Below are positions 1 to 10,579 of a DNA stretch of 64,000 nt, one piece after another. Position 1 is the first letter of the stretch; every line of letters starts with the position of its first letter. Position numbers and translations under genes: made by a program. The DNA is taken from NCBI RefSeq assembly GCF_002854065.1, contig NZ_CP024147.1; one strand, 5' to 3'. The stretch is from Escherichia coli. Lineage in GTDB: Bacteria > Pseudomonadota > Gammaproteobacteria > Enterobacterales > Enterobacteriaceae. Below the pieces are notes generated by a model that saw only the letters and a list, made by a program, of their open reading frames with translations, had not been told where the DNA came from and searched no databases.

Positions 1-640
1 GAGCGATGCTGCCTCACTGAATTCGGTGACGGAAGCGAATCAGCAAAAACCCCTGCTTGGCCTGTTTGCTGACGGCAATATGCCAGTGCGCTGGCTAGGA
101 CCGAAAGCAACGTACCATGGCAATATCGATAAGCCCGCAGTCACCTGTACGCCTAATCCGCAACGTAATGACAGTGTACCAACCCTGGCGCAGATGACCG
201 ACAAAGCCATTGAATTGTTGAGTAAAAATGAGAAAGGCTTTTTCCTGCAAGTTGAAGGTGCGTCAATCGATAAACAGGATCATGCTGCGAATCCTTGTGG
301 GCAAATTGGCGAGACGGTCGATCTCGATGAAGCCGTACAACGGGCGCTGGAATTCGCTAAAAAGGAGGGTAACACGCTGGTCATAGTCACCGCTGATCAC
401 GCCCACGCCAGCCAGATTGTTGCGCCGGATACCAAAGCTCCGGGCCTCACCCAGGCGCTAAATACCAAAGATGGCGCAGTGATGGTGATGAGTTACGGGA
501 ACTCCGAAGAGGATTCACAAGAACATACAGGCAGTCAGTTGCGTATTGCGGCGTATGGCCCGCATGCCGCCAATGTCGTTGGACTGACCGACCAGACCGA
601 TCTCTTCTACACCATGAAAGCCGCTCTGGGGCTGAAATAA
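1..640 (+). CDS. phoA: alkaline phosphatase, 3' partial (reading frame enters from upstream of window; codons begin at position 2)
   Basis: Translation ...[31 protein letters not shown]...[11 protein letters not shown]...[10 protein letters not shown] matches PhoA C-terminus; stop TAA at 638-640. Confidence 0.95.
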
Positions 641-644
641 AACC

Positions 645-683
645 GCGCCCGGCAGTGAATTTTCGCTGCCGGGTGGTTTTTTT
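645..683 (+). terminator. rho-independent terminator after phoA
   Basis: GC stem cccggcag / ctgccggg followed by T7 run immediately after phoA stop. Confidence 0.6.
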
Positions 684-757
684 GCTGTTAGCAACCAGAC
701 TTAATGGCAGATCACGGGCGCAAACGCTCATGGTTAAACATGAAGAGGGATGGTGCG

Positions 758-1078
758 ATGAAAATTACATTACTGGTTACCTTGCTTTTCGGTCTGGTTT
801 TTTTAACCACCGTCGGCGCTGCCGAGAGAACCTTAACCCCACAACAACAGCGTATGACCTCCTGTAATCAGCAGGCGACGGCACAGGCGTTGAAAGGGGA
901 TGCTCGTAAGAACTACATGAGTGATTGCCTGAAGAACAGCAAGTCTGCGCCTGGTGAAAAAAGTTTGACGCCACAGCAGCAAAAGATGCGCGAATGTAAT
1001 AATCAAGCAACGCAACAATCACTGAAAGGTGATGATCGTAATAAGTTTATGAGTGCCTGCCTCAAGAAAGCCGCCTGA
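758..1078 (+). CDS. psiF: phosphate-starvation inducible protein PsiF (signal peptide, two TPQQQ repeats)
   Basis: ORF 704-1078; start set at internal MKITLLVTLLFGLVFLTTVGA signal peptide with GAGGG RBS upstream; duplicated LTPQQQ(R/K)M..CN.QAT motif. Confidence 0.88.
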   Translation: MKITLLVTLLFGLVFLTTVGAAERTLTPQQQRMTSCNQQATAQALKGDARKNYMSDCLKNSKSAPGEKSLTPQQQKMRECNNQATQQSLKGDDRNKFMSACLKKAA

Positions 1079-1179
1079 TACCTGATAGTGCTAACGGGTG
1101 AGCTACGAAAATGGCTCACCCGAAATTTCATACTTCTGCCTTTAGCCCCGTCTCTATAATTTGGGAAAATTGTTTCTGA

Positions 1180-2295
1180 ATGTTCCCAAAAATAATGAAT
1201 GATGAAAACTTTTTCAAAAAAGCGGCGGCGCATGGGGAGGAACCTCCTTTAACTCCTCAAAACGAACATCAGCGGTCCGGGCTGCGCTTCGCCCGTCGCG
1301 TCAGACTACCCCGTGCGGTTGGCCTGGCTGGCATGTTCTTACCGATTGCTTCAACGCTGGTTTCACACCCGCCGCCGGGCTGGTGGTGGCTGGTGTTGGT
1401 CGGCTGGGCGTTCGTCTGGCCGCATTTAGCCTGGCAGATAGCGAGCAGGGCCGTCGATCCGCTTAGCCGGGAAATTTACAACTTAAAAACCGATGCAGTA
1501 TTAGCGGGAATGTGGGTAGGCGTAATGGGCGTAAACGTGCTGCCTTCCACCGCGATGTTGATGATTATGTGTCTGAATTTGATGGGGGCAGGCGGCCCCC
1601 GTCTGTTTGTCGCGGGTCTGGTGTTGATGGTGGTTTCCTGCCTTGTCACCCTCGAGCTGACGGGCATTACCGTGTCGTTCAATAGTGCGCCGCTGGAATG
1701 GTGGCTCTCCCTTCCCATTATTGTCATTTATCCTCTGCTGTTTGGCTGGGTCAGCTACCAGACGGCGACTAAACTGGCGGAACATAAACGCAGGTTGCAG
1801 GTCATGAGTACCCGCGACGGCATGACGGGCGTGTATAACCGACGTCATTGGGAAACTATGTTACGCAATGAATTTGATAACTGTCGGCGGCATAATCGCG
1901 ATGCAACGTTACTGATTATCGATATCGACCATTTCAAGAGCATCAACGATACCTGGGGCCATGATGTGGGCGATGAAGCGATTGTGGCGCTTACCCGACA
2001 GTTACAAATTACCCTGCGCGGTAGCGATGTGATTGGTCGGTTTGGCGGCGATGAGTTTGCAGTAATCATGTCCGGTACGCCAGCTGAGAGCGCCATTACC
2101 GCCATGTTACGGGTGCATGAAGGGCTAAATACATTACGTTTGCCGAATACGCCACAGGTAACTTTACGGATTAGTGTGGGGGTTGCGCCGCTGAACCCAC
2201 AAATGAGTCACTATCGTGAGTGGTTGAAATCGGCAGATTTGGCGCTTTACAAAGCAAAGAAAGCCGGACGTAACCGCACCGAAGTGGCGGCCTGA
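1180..2295 (+). CDS. dgcC: diguanylate cyclase (GGDEF domain, membrane-anchored), AdrA/YaiC
   Basis: 371 aa; N-terminal TM segments then RFGGDEF motif and DIDHFKSINDTWGH signature. Confidence 0.9.
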   Translation: MFPKIMNDENFFKKAAAHGEEPPLTPQNEHQRSGLRFARRVRLPRAVGLAGMFLPIASTLVSHPPPGWWWLVLVGWAFVWPHLAWQIASRAVDPLSREIYNLKTDAVLAGMWVGVMGVNVLPSTAMLMIMCLNLMGAGGPRLFVAGLVLMVVSCLVTLELTGITVSFNSAPLEWWLSLPIIVIYPLLFGWVSYQTATKLAEHKRRLQVMSTRDGMTGVYNRRHWETMLRNEFDNCRRHNRDATLLIIDIDHFKSINDTWGHDVGDEAIVALTRQLQITLRGSDVIGRFGGDEFAVIMSGTPAESAITAMLRVHEGLNTLRLPNTPQVTLRISVGVAPLNPQMSHYREWLKSADLALYKAKKAGRNRTEVAA

Positions 2296-2311
2296 CGTCC
2301 GGCGAAAGTCA

Positions 2312-3121
2312 TCAGGATTTGCTGAGTTTTTCTGATTTTTCCATACACTTCGTCATCGCTTCGATCACTGCAGCACGGAAGCCTTTCTCTTCCAGTACGC
2401 GTACCGCTTCAATGGTGGTGCCTCCCGGTGAGCAGACCATATCTTTCAGTGCCCCCGGATGTTCTCCCGTTTCCAGCACCATTTTTGCGGAACCCATTAC
2501 CGCCTGAGCGGCAAATTTATACGCCTGGGCACGTGGCATCCCGCCCAGCACGGCGGCGTCGGCCATCGCTTCGATAAACATAAAGACGTAGGCTGGCGAA
2601 GAACCGCTCACACCGACCACCGGGTGGATCATCGGCTCAGCAATTACTTCCGCTTCGCCAAAGCAGCGGAAAATATTCAGCACATCAGCGGTATCTTCTG
2701 GGGTTACCAGCGCGTTTGGCGTTACCGAGGTCATCCCGGCATTAACCAGCGCGGGAGTGTTCGGCATGGCGCGGATAATTTTCCGGTCATGGCCCAGCGC
2801 GCGGGCAAGCTGGTCGAGCGTGACACCTGCAGCAATAGAAACGACCAGAGAGTCTTTATTCAGGCTGGAGGTGATTTCGCTAAGCACTTTAATCATGATG
2901 CCAGGTTTAACGGCAGCAAAAATGATGTCGGCGATTTGCGCCACTTCTTGCGCCGATTCTGCGGCGTTGATGCCGAACTGGTCATGCAGGGCGGCGACTT
3001 TATCCGGGGAGGGGGTGTATACCCAGATTTGCCCTGGAAGCACCTGACCGCTGGCAATCAGACCGCCGAGAATGGCTTTTCCCATATTGCCGCAGCCAAT
3101 AAAACCGATTTTCTTTTCCAT
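2312..3121 (-). CDS. proC: pyrroline-5-carboxylate reductase
   Basis: [21 protein letters not shown]... 269 aa; ORF track start 3229 trimmed to ATG at 3119-3121 matching known ProC N-terminus. Confidence 0.95.
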
Positions 3122-3240
3122 TGCCTCACTCCTGCCGTGAAATTCATTGTTTTGATAATCGCTGGCAGAAGCATAAACAGAACTATGCCGGAAGGCAAAA
3201 GCGCGACACAATAGAGGATTACCCAACAAAGGATGACTTT

Positions 3241-3699
3241 ATGACAATTTGGGTGGATGCCGACGCGTGTCCCAATGTAATTAAAGAGATTTTGTATCGC
3301 GCGGCGGAACGTATGCAGATGCCGCTGGTACTGGTAGCAAACCAGAGTTTACGCGTGCCGCCATCGCGATTTATTCGTACGCTGCGCGTCGCGGCAGGTT
3401 TCGACGTTGCCGATAACGAAATTGTCCGGCAGTGTGAAGCGGGCGATTTGGTGATCACCGCAGATATACCTTTGGCTGCTGAAGCCATCGAGAAAGGCGC
3501 TGCGGCGCTTAATCCGCGCGGTGAACGTTACACGCCAGCGACCATTCGTGAGCGCCTGACGATGCGCGATTTTATGGATACCTTACGTGCCAGTGGGATC
3601 CAGACCGGCGGACCAGATAGCCTTTCACAACGTGACCGCCAGGCCTTTGCCGCGGAGCTGGAGAAGTGGTGGCTGGAATTGCAACGTAGTCGTGGCTAA
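3241..3699 (+). CDS. yaiI: UPF0178 family protein YaiI
   Basis: [35 protein letters not shown]...; ATG at 3241 preceded by AAAGGA RBS. Confidence 0.88.
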
Positions 3700-3700
3700 A

Positions 3701-3718
3701 TGTAATTTATTATTTACA
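3701..3718. promoter_or_regulatory. TyrR box (TGTAAT-N6-TTTACA) in aroL control region
   Basis: tgtaatttattatttaca matches TyrR box consensus TGTAAA-N6-TTTACA; aroL is a known TyrR regulon member. Confidence 0.55.
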
Positions 3719-3776
3719 CTTCATTCTTGAATATTTATTGGTATAGTAAGGGATGTATTGAGATTTTCACTTTAAG

Positions 3777-3794
3777 TGGAATTTTTTCTTTACA
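3777..3794. promoter_or_regulatory. second TyrR-box-like site upstream of aroL
   Basis: tggaattttttctttaca (TGGAAT-N6-TTTACA); a gtactagtt TrpR-like half-site follows at about 3804-3812. Confidence 0.45.
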
Positions 3795-3881
3795 ATCGAA
3801 ATTGTACTAGTTTGATGGTATGATCGCTATTCTCATGACACCGGCTTTCGCCGCATTGCGACCTATTGGGGAAAACCCACG

Positions 3882-4406
3882 ATGACACAACCTCTTTTTC
3901 TGATCGGGCCTCGGGGCTGTGGTAAAACAACGGTCGGAATGGCCCTTGCCGATTCGCTTAACCGTCGGTTTGTCGATACCGATCAGTGGTTGCAATCACA
4001 GCTCAATATGACGGTCGCGGAGATCGTCGAAAGGGAAGAGTGGGCGGGATTTCGCGCCAGAGAAACGGCGGCGCTGGAAGCGGTAACTGCGCCATCCACC
4101 GTTATCGCTACAGGCGGCGGCATTATTCTGACGGAATTTAATCGTCACTTCATGAAAAATAACGGGATCGTGGTTTATTTGTGTGCGCCAGTATCAGTCC
4201 TGGTTAACCGACTGCAAGCTGCACCGGAAGAAGATTTACGGCCAACCTTAACGGGAAAACCGCTGAGCGAAGAAGTTCAGGAAGTGCTGGAAGAACGCGA
4301 TGCGCTATATCGCGAAGTTGCGCATATTATCATCGACGCAACAAACGAACCCAGCCAGGTGATTTCTGAAATTCGCAGCGCCCTGGCACAGACGATCAAT
4401 TGTTGA
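3882..4406 (+). CDS. aroL: shikimate kinase II
   Basis: [26 protein letters not shown]... Walker A motif; 174 aa. Confidence 0.95.
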
Positions 4407-4446
4407 TTTTCGAGCGCCTATACTTAACGTTCATCCCGTGAAATAA

Positions 4447-4647
<201 letters not shown>

Positions 4648-4904
4648 CCGCATCAGACTGCTCGGAAGGGATTCTGAGTGCCACTACAAGGGATCTGCGT
4701 CACATTTTTCATAATTCATGTTTTTCAAATAATTAGAATATTAAACAATAACAATCCATTACTGGAATCATTTGGAATCTTTACATTATGCCGTGCACGT
4801 CTGCTGCTACGCTTTTTGTCATTTGTAGCACAAGTAAGTGTCAGCAGTGGTGCTTAACACTTGCCCGGTAATTAACGACGAAATAAAAGTAAGGTGGAAG
4901 AACA

Positions 4905-5582
4905 ATGAGTGCGTCGTTGGCGATCCTGACCATCGGCATTGTACCTATGCAGGAAGTTTTGCCGCTCCTGACAGAATACATTGACGAAGATAATATTTCC
5001 CATCATAGCCTGCTGGGGAAGTTAAGCCGCGAAGAAGTGATGGCGGAGTACGCGCCAGAAGCAGGCGAAGACACAATTCTCACATTATTAAATGACAACC
5101 ATCTGGCCCATGTTTCGCGTCGCAAAGTAGAGCGTGACCTGCAAGGTGTGGTTGAAGTGCTCGATAATCAGGGCTACGACGTCATTATATTAATGAGTAC
5201 GGCAAACATTAGTAGTATGACTGCGCGTAATACGATCTTTCTTGAGCCGTCGCGGATATTGCCACCGCTGGTTTCCTCTATTGTTGAAGATCATCAGGTG
5301 GGGGTTATCGTACCGGTTGAGGAGTTGCTGACCGTTCAGGCGCAAAAATGGCAAATTTTGCAGAAACCGCCGGTATTTTCATTGGGTAACCCCATTCATG
5401 ATTCAGAACAAAAAATCATTGATGCCGGGAAAGAATTACTGGCGAAAGGCGCAGATGTCATCATGCTGGATTGTTTGGGATTTAACCAGCGTCATCGCGA
5501 TTTACTGCAAAAACAGCTCGATGTTCCTGTCTTGCTCTCTAACGTATTGATTGCACGGTTGGCTGCGGAATTACTGGTGTAA
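4905..5582 (+). CDS. aroM: AroM family protein
   Basis: 225-aa [25 protein letters not shown]...; RBS AAGGTGGAAG. Confidence 0.9.
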
Positions 5583-5653
5583 TTTTGCGTGACAGCCAGC
5601 GCCTCTGGCCCCTATAGTGAAGTAGATGTTCAACTACCAGACAGGGCCAGTTT

Positions 5654-5938
5654 ATGCTTCAAAGTAATGAGTACTTTTCCGGCAAAGTGAAATCGATCGG
5701 CTTTTCCAGCAGCAGCACTGGTCGCGCCAGCGTGGGTGTTATGGTTGAAGGCGAATACACCTTCAGCACCGCTGAGCCGGAAGAAATGACGGTAATCAGT
5801 GGCGCGCTGAATGTGTTACTGCCTGACGCGACCGACTGGCAAGTGTATGAAGCCGGTTCGGTGTTTAATGTTCCCGGTCACAGTGAGTTTCATCTGCAAG
5901 TTGCCGAACCCACCTCTTATCTGTGCCGCTATCTGTAA
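5654..5938 (+). CDS. ppnP: pyrimidine/purine nucleoside phosphorylase PpnP (YaiE)
   Basis: 94-aa [17 protein letters not shown]... matches YaiE/PpnP. Confidence 0.9.
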
Positions 5939-6292
5939 TTCCTCGCCTTCCCCTTGAACGGGAGGGCATTTTTCTGAAATATCCTCTCTTTAACCCATAA
6001 TAATATTTCCTTTGCTGCGATTTTTTCAATTTCCGATATATTCATAATTCATCAAGGTTGATATAAATATCATTGAAGATTATGAATAGAATTAATATAT
6101 TGGTCATCTGTATGGTCGTATTTTTTATGACTGGCAATGCATGCGCCACAGAGTGGATCAGTAGCGAGGAGCTTATCACCTCTGACTTTCATCTTATGAC
6201 GGCAGATGAGCGCAACGTGGTTAAAGCGGCAACCGACGATAGTATGGAAGCTGCTTATATGCTAAAAGATAATATCCGCTGGTATTATCATA

Positions 6293-6301
6293 ATGGTGAC
6301 C
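6293..6301. repeat. 9-bp target site duplication (ATGGTGACC), left copy
   Basis: Identical 9-mer immediately flanks both IS1 ends. Confidence 0.85.
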
Positions 6302-6356
6302 GGTGATGCTGCCAACTTACTGATTTAGTGTATGATGGTGTTTTTGAGGTGCTCCA

Positions 6357-6632
6357 GTGGCTTCTGTTTCTATCAGCTGTCCCTCCTGTTCAGCTACTGA
6401 CGGGGTGGTGCGTAACGGCAAAAGCACTGCCGGACATCAGCGCTATCTCTGCTCTCACTGCCGTAAAACATGGCAACTGCAGTTCACTTACACCGCTTCT
6501 CAACCCGGTACGCACCAGAAAATCATTGATATGGCCATGAATGGCGTTGGATGCCGGGCAACCGCCCGCATTATGGGCGTTGGCCTCAACACGATTTTCC
6601 GCCATTTAAAAAACTCAGGCCGCAGTCGGTAA
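6357..6632 (+). CDS. insA: IS1 InsA (transposition inhibitor / N-terminal part of transposase)
   Basis: [46 protein letters not shown]... ; GTG start. Confidence 0.95.
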
Positions 6633-7054
6633 CCTCGCGCATACAGCCGGGCAGTGACGTCATCGTCTGCGCGGAAATGGACGAACAGTGGGGATACGTC
6701 GGGGCTAAATCGCGCCAGCGCTGGCTGTTTTACGCGTATGACAGGCTCCGGAAGACGGTTGTTGCGCACGTATTCGGTGAACGCACTATGGCGACGCTGG
6801 GGCGTCTTATGAGCCTGCTGTCACCCTTTGACGTGGTGATATGGATGACGGATGGCTGGCCGCTGTATGAATCCCGCCTGAAGGGAAAGCTGCACGTAAT
6901 CAGCAAGCGATATACGCAGCGAATTGAGCGGCATAACCTGAATCTGAGGCAGCACCTGGCACGGCTGGGACGGAAGTCGCTGTCGTTCTCAAAATCGGTG
7001 GAGCTGCATGACAAAGTCATCGGGCATTATCTGAACATAAAACACTATCAATAA
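6551..7054 (+). CDS. insB: IS1 InsB' frame (expressed as InsAB' fusion by programmed -1 frameshift at the A6C motif near 6606-6615)
   Basis: ...[26 protein letters not shown]...HYLNIKHYQ* ; TTTAAAAAAC slippery run in insA/insB overlap. Confidence 0.9.
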
Positions 7055-7069
7055 GTTGGAGTCATTACC

Positions 7070-7078
7070 ATGGTGACC
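7070..7078. repeat. 9-bp target site duplication (ATGGTGACC), right copy
   Basis: Identical to 6293-6301. Confidence 0.85.
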
Positions 7079-9134
7079 TATCATTACCCGCTAACTTCAG
7101 CAATCAAAATAAACTGGTGGTGAACGGTAATTTAACGATTTCCGGCGATTATGATGATTATCTGTCAGGTAATGGTCATCTGATTGTATTAGGTAATGTT
7201 ATTGTCGATAACTTTATTAATCATGATTTCGCGTATGTCAAAGGACAGATGACCGCGAAAGGTTTAGTTTATGCTGATTACAATGATCATAACTTTGAAG
7301 TGATGAAGGGAATTAGTGCGCGAGGCATTATTGTTTCCGATAAAGCAACGCAATTTGAAGTCATTAAAGCTGAATTTTATATCAATGAAGATGGAAGTGG
7401 TGAAGGATATAACTGGGATGAGAATATTCAAAAAGCCTATTCACTGGTGACTGCCGATCTTTATGATCACACTGAAATCGAAACCGATAACATTTCCAAT
7501 GCGTATCCTGACTATGATAGCGTCGCAGACAACATCGTTCAGGGTTTACCGCTTTTTCGAGATAAAGCCGCTCCTGAAATTAATGAGAAATTAAAATGGA
7601 TTGAAACGGGGAAACTCGATAATTTCCCAGCGAATAAAATAAAGCATCAAGATCCACTGGTGGCACGTTTGCTGACTCATACAGAGAGTTTATCACCCGC
7701 CGTTATGCTGCAACTGTTACAGCACCCCGATGACCAGACGCGTGAATCGATGGCGCAGTCCTGGCCCGCTCAACAGATGCATTTGCTTACCGATGAATTA
7801 ATTAAAGATGAGGCTGTTGCCAGAGGGCTGGTTAAAAACAGTAATATTTCCGCCGATGTGAATAAAAAATTAATGTCTGTACCCGTCGAGAGCGTACAGC
7901 TGGAGCAGGCCAGACAGGATAATCTTTCTCCAGATATTGTTGCGTCGTTAAGTCATAGCCCCTTTCTCAGTGTACGCAAGACATTACTCAGCCATTACGA
8001 TTACGCCTGGCTGGTTCCGACTGCAGTGGCCGATGAGTTGATAAATAACGAAGACCCGGAGTTACGTGAAAGAATTACCGGAGCAGATTTAACCGCACAA
8101 CAAGCAGTGATGTTGAGTAAAGATAAATCACTGAAAGTTCGTGAAGCATTAGCCCGGACGCTTACTGAATTAAAAATTACCCAACTGTCAGCAACCCTGC
8201 GTACAGAGGATATTGAACGTATCGCAGAACAAATGTATCTGGATAATAAAGAAAATAAAAATATCGTAAAGGCGTTATTGATAGCGTTGCCGGAGATGCG
8301 TCAACTGTCTCTGGCAAAAGAAGATGTGCACAATTTGCGCGAAGGTGCGCGTTATCTGACATCGAAGGACGTGATTAGTTATCTATTGACTCAGCATGAT
8401 GTTCCCACCGTCTGGGATGAGCTGGCACGCGATAAATTATTGCCGCTGGAATATAAGAAACAGTTATGGCAACGCACATTAAATTTAATGATGAGCAAAC
8501 GGCAAGAAGATCAAGAGCAAGCCTACGAAGTACAGCTGGCGCTGATTGATAATGGTGTTGTTGACGAAGAGATGTTAAATAATGCCATTGATTTACTGGT
8601 TGATTTACCCGCTGAATACCGCTATCGAATGCGTAACCAATTATTTGATAATAAAGATTTATCTTCCGGAATTATCAACAAACTCGATCAACAGTATCGC
8701 TTCAACTCTGACTGGGCGCTGTCTGTTGTCAGTATGAAAAATAGCACCCGTAGGCAAAGTGAAAGAGGATTACACCGCTGGAACCGTGAGGATAGCGATA
8801 TTTTTGCAGAACTGGCGACGATAAAAGATAAATCAGATGATGAATGGTGGCGTGCATTGCTGCAAAGTCGCAATGATCATTTGCGCCAAACGGCATTACG
8901 CAACGCACATACCCCGGCGTCGTTGTTAACGACATTGACTGAGCCTCAGGATCGGTCGCTGGCTATTAATAATCCACAGCTGGCTGCCGATGTGAAAACG
9001 GCGTGGTTAAAAGAGGATCCATCATTACTCTTATTTGTCGAACAACCCGATCTTTCGCTGTTACGTGATTTAGTGAAAACCGGGGCAACGCGGAAAATTT
9101 GCAGTGAAGCGCGTCACCGGCTTGAGGAAAAACA

Positions 9135-9590
9135 ATGACACAACGTCCATGGAGCAAGTTACAGCGGGAGATCTATGACTTACTGACGCCAACGATCAAC
9201 CTGCAAATTCACTGTACCCGTTATCCCATGCGCAGCCAAAATGGTGGAAGCACCGATTTACCGCGTTATTGGATCACGTTGGATAAAAACGTGATCTGGG
9301 ATTACCCGAAAGACTTTATTGCAGGTAACGGTGGAGTGCGTAATTTTCACGGTGAAACTTGCTGGTATCCTTACCTGACGGATATTTGTTCAATTTCTGA
9401 TTTATTGCGTGAATATATTGACACCCCAAAAGCGGAGTTGTTAACAAAACAATTTACCAGCGATAAATGGGGGTTAGTGAATATTCTGCGTGCTGCTGAC
9501 AGGCGAATAGGGATGAGGCGATTAGATCAGTTACGGCGTAAAACGCATAATATTGCTGCGCTAAAAATTATTGCCCGCCGTAGCGAATAA
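9135..9590 (+). CDS. hypothetical protein, 151 aa, translationally coupled to upstream repeat-protein gene
   Basis: ATG overlaps upstream stop (ATGA at 9135-9138); no motif recognised; [17 protein letters not shown]... Confidence 0.6.
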
Positions 9591-9595
9591 TTATA

Positions 9596-9655
9596 TGCCT
9601 GGTGTGGCTTCGTACGCCGGATAAGACGCGGCAGGCGTCGCATCCGGCATTAAAG
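9596..9655. repeat. REP (repetitive extragenic palindrome) element
   Basis: gccggataagacgcggcaggcgtcgcatccggc, typical REP palindrome in convergent intergenic gap. Confidence 0.5.
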
Positions 9656-9667
9656 GAAAATCAGCAA

Positions 9668-10579
9668 TTAACGTTGTGCTTCGCCACCTAATCCTTCAAT
9701 CAGGTTTTGAATTAACGCTGCCAGTTCACCAGTCATCAGGATGAAATCGGCATCAAAATGCTGGGCGAAATCTTCACGGTCGATATCTTCGTTTTGATCG
9801 CGCAGCTCGTCGCAGAACTTCAGACGCTTGAGCGAACCATCGTCGCACATCACAAACTGAATGCGCTGCTGCCAGTCGAGCGCCAGTTTAGTCACCACTT
9901 TTCCGGCTTCAATGTGATTGGTGATCTCTTCGCTGGTCAGATCTTGTTTCTTCGCGCGGATCACGCCGCCATCTTCCAGCAACGATTTCAGCTCGGCTTC
10001 ATCAAGCAGCTGGAAGCCCTGTGCCGCACTACCGGAGCGAACCCATTCGGTCAACGTCAGTTCAATCGGGTTTTCCATGCTCAATGGTACAACCGGTAAC
10101 GACCCCAGGCTTTTACGCAGCAGTGCCAGCGTATCTTCCGCTTTTTTGGCACTGGCGCAGTCCACCATAATCAAACCGTTAACCGTGTCGATCCACATCA
10201 TTGTCTGGCTAAAACGGCTGAAAGCACGCGGCAACAGAGAGTGCAGCACTTCGTCTTTCAGCGAATCTTTTTCGGTTTTCTTCAGCTTACGCGCCTGTTC
10301 CGCTTCCAGTTTGGCGATTTTCGCTTCCAGCGCCTGCTTAATCACCGGAGACGGGAGGATTTTTTCTTCTTTGCGCGCGCAGATAACAATTTGACCATTG
10401 GCAACGTGCGTTAACGCATCGCTGTGCGATCCCATCGGAGGAACCCAGCCCATCTTCGCCATGTCCTGGCTGCCGCATGGGGTAAATGCCATCGAGGCTA
10501 GCTGTTTTTCCATCTCTTCTGCACGCAGCGAAATCTCGCGGCTAAGACGGTAAACCATTAAATTTTTGAACCACAGCAT
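9668..10579 (-). CDS. rdgC: recombination-associated protein RdgC
   Basis: [28 protein letters not shown]... 303 aa; start trimmed from ORF track to ATG at 10577-10579. Confidence 0.95.

Follow-up and report, generated by a model that had tools for sequence, protein, structure and literature searches.

A recent IS1 insertion very probably disrupted a DUF2773-protein gene in one clone of Escherichia coli

Within a 64-kb stretch of E. coli chromosome (the window, to whose first letter all positions refer), an intact IS1 element has very probably inserted, recently and by ordinary transposition, into a gene encoding a DUF2773 protein. The anatomy and identity of the element, the reading frame that is restored by its removal, the empty and occupied sites in other strains and the adjacent deletions in relatives can all be read directly from the sequences compared. 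In the course of events that we propose, a transposition-competent IS1 would have inserted by DDE-transposase chemistry, with staggered target cuts 9 bp apart and fill-in giving rise to a duplication of ATGGTGACC. It would have landed at codon 74 of 759, in the AT-rich 5' part of the gene, leaving a 5' fragment that would give a 74-aa stub and a 3' remainder that would be devoid of promoter, ribosome-binding site, start codon and signal peptide, and the overlapping SF0329-family gene would probably be subject to polarity. The insertion would belong to the history of one E. coli clone, and in strain CUWW06 the IS1 would later have made a 1,387-bp adjacent deletion.

Recomputation from the sequence places a complete IS1 of exactly 768 bp at 6302-7069 on the + strand, in the same transcription direction as the target gene, an assignment made from length, ends, identity and an NCBIfam model. 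The element ends in GGTGATGCTGCCAACTTACTGAT at the left and in ATCAATAAGTTGGAGTCATTACC at the right, the right end being the reverse complement of GGTAATGACTCCAACTTATTGAT, and its terminal inverted repeats, IRL (6302-6324, + strand) and IRR (7047-7069, - strand), both located by end sequence, are imperfect, with 18 of 23 positions in agreement. Within these ends lie insA (6357-6632, + strand), an ORF with a GTG start that encodes a 91-aa zinc-finger/HTH repressor (IS1_IS1595_Zn domain, E = 2e-10), and the insB' frame (6551-7054, + strand), identified from the ORF list and the NCBIfam model and open throughout its 167 codons. The A6C slippery motif, at which a -1 frameshift would yield the InsAB' transposase, is found at 6608-6614 on the + strand, within TTTAAAAAAC at 6605-6614. 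The NCBIfam model transpos_IS1 (NF033558) matches the InsB' part with 143.8 bits (cut-off 100; model positions 76-199) and the InsA part with 90 bits (positions 1-81), and the two halves together span the whole model. A promoter scan additionally returned a weak promoter-like site, CTGCCA-16-TATGAT, at 6309-6336, overlapping IRL. This is the same position as that of the described IS1 promoter overlapping IRL, which is extremely weak and repressed by InsA (PMC12428005). The published anatomy of IS1 comprises 768 bp, imperfect inverted repeats, the InsA repressor and an A6C -1 frameshift leading to InsAB' (PMC12428005); its target duplication is 8-9 bp long, and intramolecular replicative transposition is also described (PMC12428005). 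Set against the IS1 family, the window element matches in its 768 bp, 23-bp repeats, insA/insB' overlap, A6C motif and 9-bp duplication, with no structural difference.

The element is bracketed by a target-site duplication, identified from the sequence as a left copy of ATGGTGACC at 6293-6301 and a right copy at 7070-7078. These two sites are the only occurrences of the 9-mer on either strand of the window. The duplication ends at 9 bp, the tenth base being different, and two fixed 9-mers are expected to be identical by chance with a probability of 4^-9, or about 4e-6. The original prediction, made from the letters of the window, had described a complete 768-bp IS1 with both terminal repeats, intact insA and insB' frames including the A6C motif, and identical 9-mers on either side; on recomputation its coordinates for the element were exact to the base, the reading frames were intact at 91 aa and 167 codons, and both flanking 9-mers were found where it had placed them.

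Copies with 100% identity to the window IS1 along its whole length occur on at least 4,899 plasmid records, where they are annotated as 'IS1-like element IS1B family transposase', and the copy in CUWW06 is identical DNA, annotated as WP_095033700.1 with a programmed frameshift. One nucleotide separates the window IS1 from K-12 IS1B and IS1C, and eight from K-12 IS1A. At IS1 position 704, in insB', the window has CTG (Leu) as does K-12 IS1A, whereas K-12 IS1B and IS1C have CAG (Gln). The window element appears in every respect compared to be an ordinary IS1, of an isoform common on enterobacterial plasmids and of a kind already known. The K-12 copies IS1B, C, D and F barely transpose (PMC12428005). 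The window isoform is evidently mobile in its own clone, since an identical copy, with a duplication of its own, occupies a second site in the sister strain 100416. We infer that the window copy is itself transposition-competent; relatives of the window strain have also undergone adjacent deletions at this locus.

When IS1 is deleted together with one 9-mer, 6082-6301 is joined to 7079-9138 in frame and without a stop, and an uninterrupted ORF of 2,280 nt (759 codons) runs from the ATG at 6082. The 5' fragment of the gene (6082-6301, + strand, from the ORF) runs from codon 1 to the first base of codon 74, and the 3' remainder (7079-9138, + strand), which is in frame with it after removal of IS1, holds codons 74-759. 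As the sequence now stands, the 5' fragment runs into IS1 and ends ...YHNGDR-stop, a stub of 74 aa. By inspection, it contains a predicted signal peptide, MNRINILVICMVVFFMTGNACA|TEW, with a basic N-region, a hydrophobic core and an A-x-A motif; the identical 5' stretch in CUWW06 is annotated by RefSeq as a partial pseudogene without its C-terminus. DUF2773 (Pfam PF10971) matches residues 679-759 over the full model (1-81) with E = 6.3e-43, and the remaining 678 residues gave no match in Pfam, NCBIfam, PADLOC or PDB sequences. The target is best described as a chromosomal gene between ppnP and rdgC for a predicted secreted protein with a C-terminal DUF2773. Two bases in this region are private to the window, the T at 9100 and the T at 9759, each of which is C in CUWW06, 100416, XJ34 and 2018-05-2CC; the former changes Arg748 to Cys in the DUF2773 domain of the disrupted gene, and the latter lies in rdgC.

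The gene order is aroM-ppnP-[target gene]-[SF0329]-rdgC-mak. The SF0329-family gene (9135-9590, + strand) encodes 151 aa and matches NF049912 with 94.6 bits (cut-off 60) over model positions 2-160 of 161. Its ATG overlaps the stop codon of the target gene (ATGA), and the two genes probably form an operon in which SF0329 is second. A scan for terminators found a terminator-like hairpin and T-run after ppnP (5945-5967, + strand), which argues that the operon has a promoter of its own, and a candidate promoter is implied in the AT-rich stretch 5968-6081; GC content is 0.33-0.35 at 5900-6199. The counterpart intergenic region of K-12 has a mapped ykiA promoter under activation by BglJ-RcsB (PMC3950696). 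The alignment of K-12 with the window extends to 6080, and the ykiA promoter region is common to both. Elsewhere in the window (~24975-26444), as in CUWW06, malZ and acpH flank a gene for a 489-aa 'hypothetical protein'.

Among complete genomes that hold this stretch, 443 of 445 have the uninterrupted site. These genomes were enumerated by unique-flank queries, as a cross-check on the junction queries (best 40 pieces per record, which concerns some 375 IS1-rich records). Comparison with sister strains, a check that the original prediction had proposed, found the empty site in both 100416 and XJ34. Strain 100416 (NZ_CM128593) shows 5 differences from the window in about 13.2 kb (~0.04%), two of which are private to the window, and has a single uninterrupted ATGGTGACC. 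XJ34 also has a single uninterrupted ATGGTGACC, within an intact 759-aa gene (WP_123040695.1) whose allele is separated from the rebuilt window gene by 5 nt (3 aa) and is free of stops and frameshifts. XJ34 is 99.9% identical to the window over 7079-9600 and 0.35% diverged over the whole 15.2-kb locus. Its differences from the window number 46 to the left of 6272 and only 3 between 7079 and 14000, and a putative recombination breakpoint between the two strains is indicated at the target gene's 5' end or close to it (~6271-7254).

The occupied site is found in CUWW06 (NZ_CP182139), which has no mismatches to the window over 1-7069 and therein the same IS1 and the same left junction. In CUWW06 the right end of IS1 is joined to window position 8457 with no duplication, a deletion of 1,387 bp, and this state appears to be an IS1-adjacent deletion derived from the state seen in the window. 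The next 42.9 kb of CUWW06 differ by 9 scattered transitions and one 12-bp indel. The 12 bp, at 40313-40324 in the window and absent from CUWW06, lie within the gene for EspY3 (~39271-40854), a T3SS effector pentapeptide-repeat protein by the CUWW06 annotation, and constitute an in-frame difference in repeat number between near-clonal strains. The left junction extends to samples beyond these two genomes: the junction-specific 74-aa product was found on at least 23 public contigs, whose sources are draft genomes (GCA_036662595.1 for one), metagenomes and assembled sequencing runs, and all five of the contigs inspected read from ppnP through the same junction into IRL.

The insertion would accordingly have occurred in a single circulating clone, once the 100416 lineage had branched off but before CUWW06 did. 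Each of these splits amounts to ~2-4 differences per 10 kb. The short-term substitution rate of E. coli is a few times 1e-7 per site per year, and a rough reckoning from this rate suggests that the insertion is decades to a few centuries old. The original prediction had called the insertion recent, and the empty site in 100416 together with the left junction shared with CUWW06 bears this out, but at the level of the clone: CUWW06 and at least 23 contigs carry the insertion, which is not private to the isolate. The perfect duplication and the stop-free remnant from which recency had been argued are both present, but taken alone they are weak grounds for dating, as a strain whose flanks are 0.6% diverged has the same perfect right junction.

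By junction and unique-flank queries, no other complete RefSeq E. coli genome has both junctions and the full 3' remainder, and among the molecules compared the window is the only one in which the two junctions occur together. An exact 39-nt right-junction pattern gave 0 matches in JGI metagenome contigs, a result of little weight because short-read assemblies break at IS1. The 629-aa product that begins at the ATG at 7249 is present on at least 12 contigs, but the four inspected all have the junction of the 100416 type (IS1 | GATAACTTT), and the window-type right junction was not recovered in drafts by way of these four. In favour of an artefact, a repeat misplaced by the assembler, one may cite that the element is multicopy, with at least 40 matching places in close relatives, and that both junctions are seen together in no other complete genome. 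Yet transposition, and not misassembly, is what an exact 9-bp duplication and a precisely restored frame point to, the left junction occurs independently in CUWW06 and in the 23 or more contigs from other samples, and the right junction occurs independently in strain 2018-05-2CC. We consider an artefact extremely improbable and treat the insertion as real.

Strain 2018-05-2CC (NZ_AP027877) carries an IS1 in the same orientation whose right junction is exactly that of the window (IS1 end | ATGGTGACCTATC...), and the event maps to 6111-7078. On the left side, the strain has IS1 directly against position 6110, 191 bp having been lost in an adjacent deletion that left no duplication. Its flanks are ~0.6% diverged from the window on both sides, and its IS1 differs from the window copy at 8 positions and from K-12 IS1A at 2. 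This strain also has a 1-bp deletion at 8597. Both adjacent deletions at the locus are of the IS1-mediated kind: CUWW06 keeps the left junction and 2018-05-2CC the right, neither with a duplication, whereas the window represents the undeleted parental state in which both copies of the duplication are present.

The junction in 2018-05-2CC raises the question of whether the insertion could instead be old and shared by descent across diverged lineages, with the empty sites in relatives produced by recombinational replacement and the perfect duplication merely what low divergence over 9 bp would lead one to expect. The shared right junction and orientation in spite of ~0.6% diverged flanks speak for such a history, the more so as an independent hit at the same base and in the same orientation within the gene would be expected only about 1 time in 4,560 under uniform targeting. 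However, the IS1 of 2018-05-2CC is a different isoform, and the nearest relatives of the window (100416 at ~0.04%; XJ34 across the gene) are empty. Position 7254, 185 bp to the right of IS1, carries the 100416 allele and not that of 2018-05-2CC, so recombination could have brought in the occupied site only as a very small patch. Moreover, the target has motifs resembling IS1 ends and could be a hot spot. Descent from an old insertion is unlikely; in view of the empty nearest relatives and the 100416 allele at 7254, we favour a separate insertion at the same position in 2018-05-2CC, and a recent insertion in the clone of the window.

Further IS1 copies have been found within the target gene. 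In 100416, an identical and co-oriented IS1 is found 137 bp deeper into the gene, with a duplication of GATAACTTT at 7207-7215, and this junction type is present on at least 12 public contigs, some of them from studies that also yielded contigs with the window-type junction. GDSC2227PM has an IS1A-type copy in the opposite orientation with a duplication of GAAGTGGTG at 7394-7402, and JX21CE8 an IS1A-type copy in the same orientation with a duplication of ACTCAGCCA at 7986-7994. The gene has thus been entered by IS1 at no fewer than four distinct sites (6293, 7207, 7394 and 7986), three of them reached independently of that of the window.

IS1 prefers AT-rich targets, and by a classical report its hot spots resemble IS1 ends and are located in AT-rich DNA, with which the target agrees. 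In the target, GGTGA, the left terminus of IS1, occurs within the duplication at 6295-6299, and TCATTACC, the right terminus of IS1, lies 2 bp downstream of the duplication at 7081-7088; by way of these two pseudo-ends, InsA or InsAB' might be drawn to the site. Two further motifs are close to other insertions, GGTAATG (7192-7198) beside that of 100416 and AGTCATTA (7359-7366) not far from that of GDSC2227PM. Across the window, some 2% of positions have an 8-mer matching an IS1 terminus within 25 bp, which is suggestive, although the test was chosen after the motif had been seen. Occupied genomes number 5 among ~447 carriers, where a per-genome median of 10 IS1-matching places would predict ~2, an enrichment that is not convincing alone. 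The rarity of the full-length gene, the deletion remnants in K-12 and most other strains, the four or more IS1 sites and the two isoforms at one identical right junction give rise to a tentative proposal, possible but rather doubtful: that loss of the DUF2773/SF0329 operon has been repeatedly selected in E. coli, or that this stretch is a sequence-directed hot spot for IS1.

As for the consequences of the insertion, we infer that the DUF2773-protein gene is now a pseudogene that has lost its expression. IS1 insertions are classically polar in both orientations. As the probable second member of the disrupted operon, the SF0329-family gene is exposed to polarity and is probably silenced at least in part, a likely effect on which the original prediction was silent. 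An alternative is that the insertion has rewired expression, such that read-through from IS1 or transcription going out of it would give an N-terminally truncated cytoplasmic protein from the GTG at 7117 or the ATG at 7249, or continued expression of SF0329. IS1 and the target gene are co-oriented, transcription from flanking DNA can enter IS1 (PMC12428005), and the frame of the remainder is open from 7012, inside IS1, to 9138. The original prediction had noted a 673-codon ORF beginning with GTG, which is present at 7117-9138, and had suggested, with a hedge, that the remainder could be expressed from that codon. This suggestion found no support. The GTG at 7117 is the first possible start, but neither it nor the GTG at 7120 is preceded by a Shine-Dalgarno-like sequence, and the promoter scan found no + strand promoter-like site at 6337-7439 and no sigma-70-like site facing outward at the right end of IS1. 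The first start with a Shine-Dalgarno-like motif is the ATG at 7249, which has AAGGA upstream and is the one chosen by gene callers. In exact look-ups, no record of the 673-aa remainder was found, either in its Cys748 version or in the common Arg748 version, and gene callers evidently pick another start.

Other evidence also stands against rewired expression. The promoter of IS1 itself is extremely weak and InsA-repressed, as noted above, and without its signal peptide the product would be mislocalized. The additional 1,387 bp of the remainder that IS1 has removed in CUWW06 tell against selection for its retention; the 3' remainder is not being maintained there. Rewiring is thus very unlikely, and disruption with loss of expression is the reading that we retain. 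IS1 sits 3' of the target-gene promoter, in the same orientation, with no terminator-like site between them in the scan, and transcription that enters IS1 from flanking DNA raises transposition (PMC12428005). Read-in transcription might then favour further IS1 events from the window copy.

Of 5,426 complete E. coli genomes, no more than 443 have the target locus largely at full length, among them O157:H7, O55:H7, O145 and various others. The remaining complete genomes, K-12 included, keep ~26-29% of the query, and in the K-12 derivative MGY (NZ_CP019629) window positions 6081-8796 are deleted. In the same position between ppnP and rdgC, K-12 retains ykiA, which represents the final 113 codons of the DUF2773-protein gene, and the 27-aa ykiD, in which 11 N-terminal and 16 C-terminal residues are what remains of the 151-aa SF0329-family protein; the sequence of YkiD has been published and reported as a small protein (PMC6001520). 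In K-12 both genes have been lost by deletions, whereas in the window both are complete in sequence and IS1 is the sole interruption. By these alignments, K-12 ykiA and ykiD are deletion remnants of a two-gene DUF2773-protein/SF0329 operon, and the target gene is expendable and readily lost by E. coli.

Taken by itself, this is a textbook IS1 insertion of a kind already known, and the equivalent in CUWW06 is represented in RefSeq as an IS1 between two partial pseudogenes; its importance beyond annotation is little. For annotation, 6082-6301 and 7079-9138 are to be recorded as one IS1-disrupted pseudogene, and the 673-codon ORF should not be counted as a protein. The 74-aa junction product, or the junction sequence, may serve as a marker of the lineage in draft genomes and metagenomes. 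Together, the window, CUWW06 and 100416 would document the dynamics of IS1 in one clone: a simple insertion, another that arose independently at a distance of 137 bp, and an adjacent deletion. The only lead of wider biological interest is the recurrent loss of this predicted secreted protein across E. coli.
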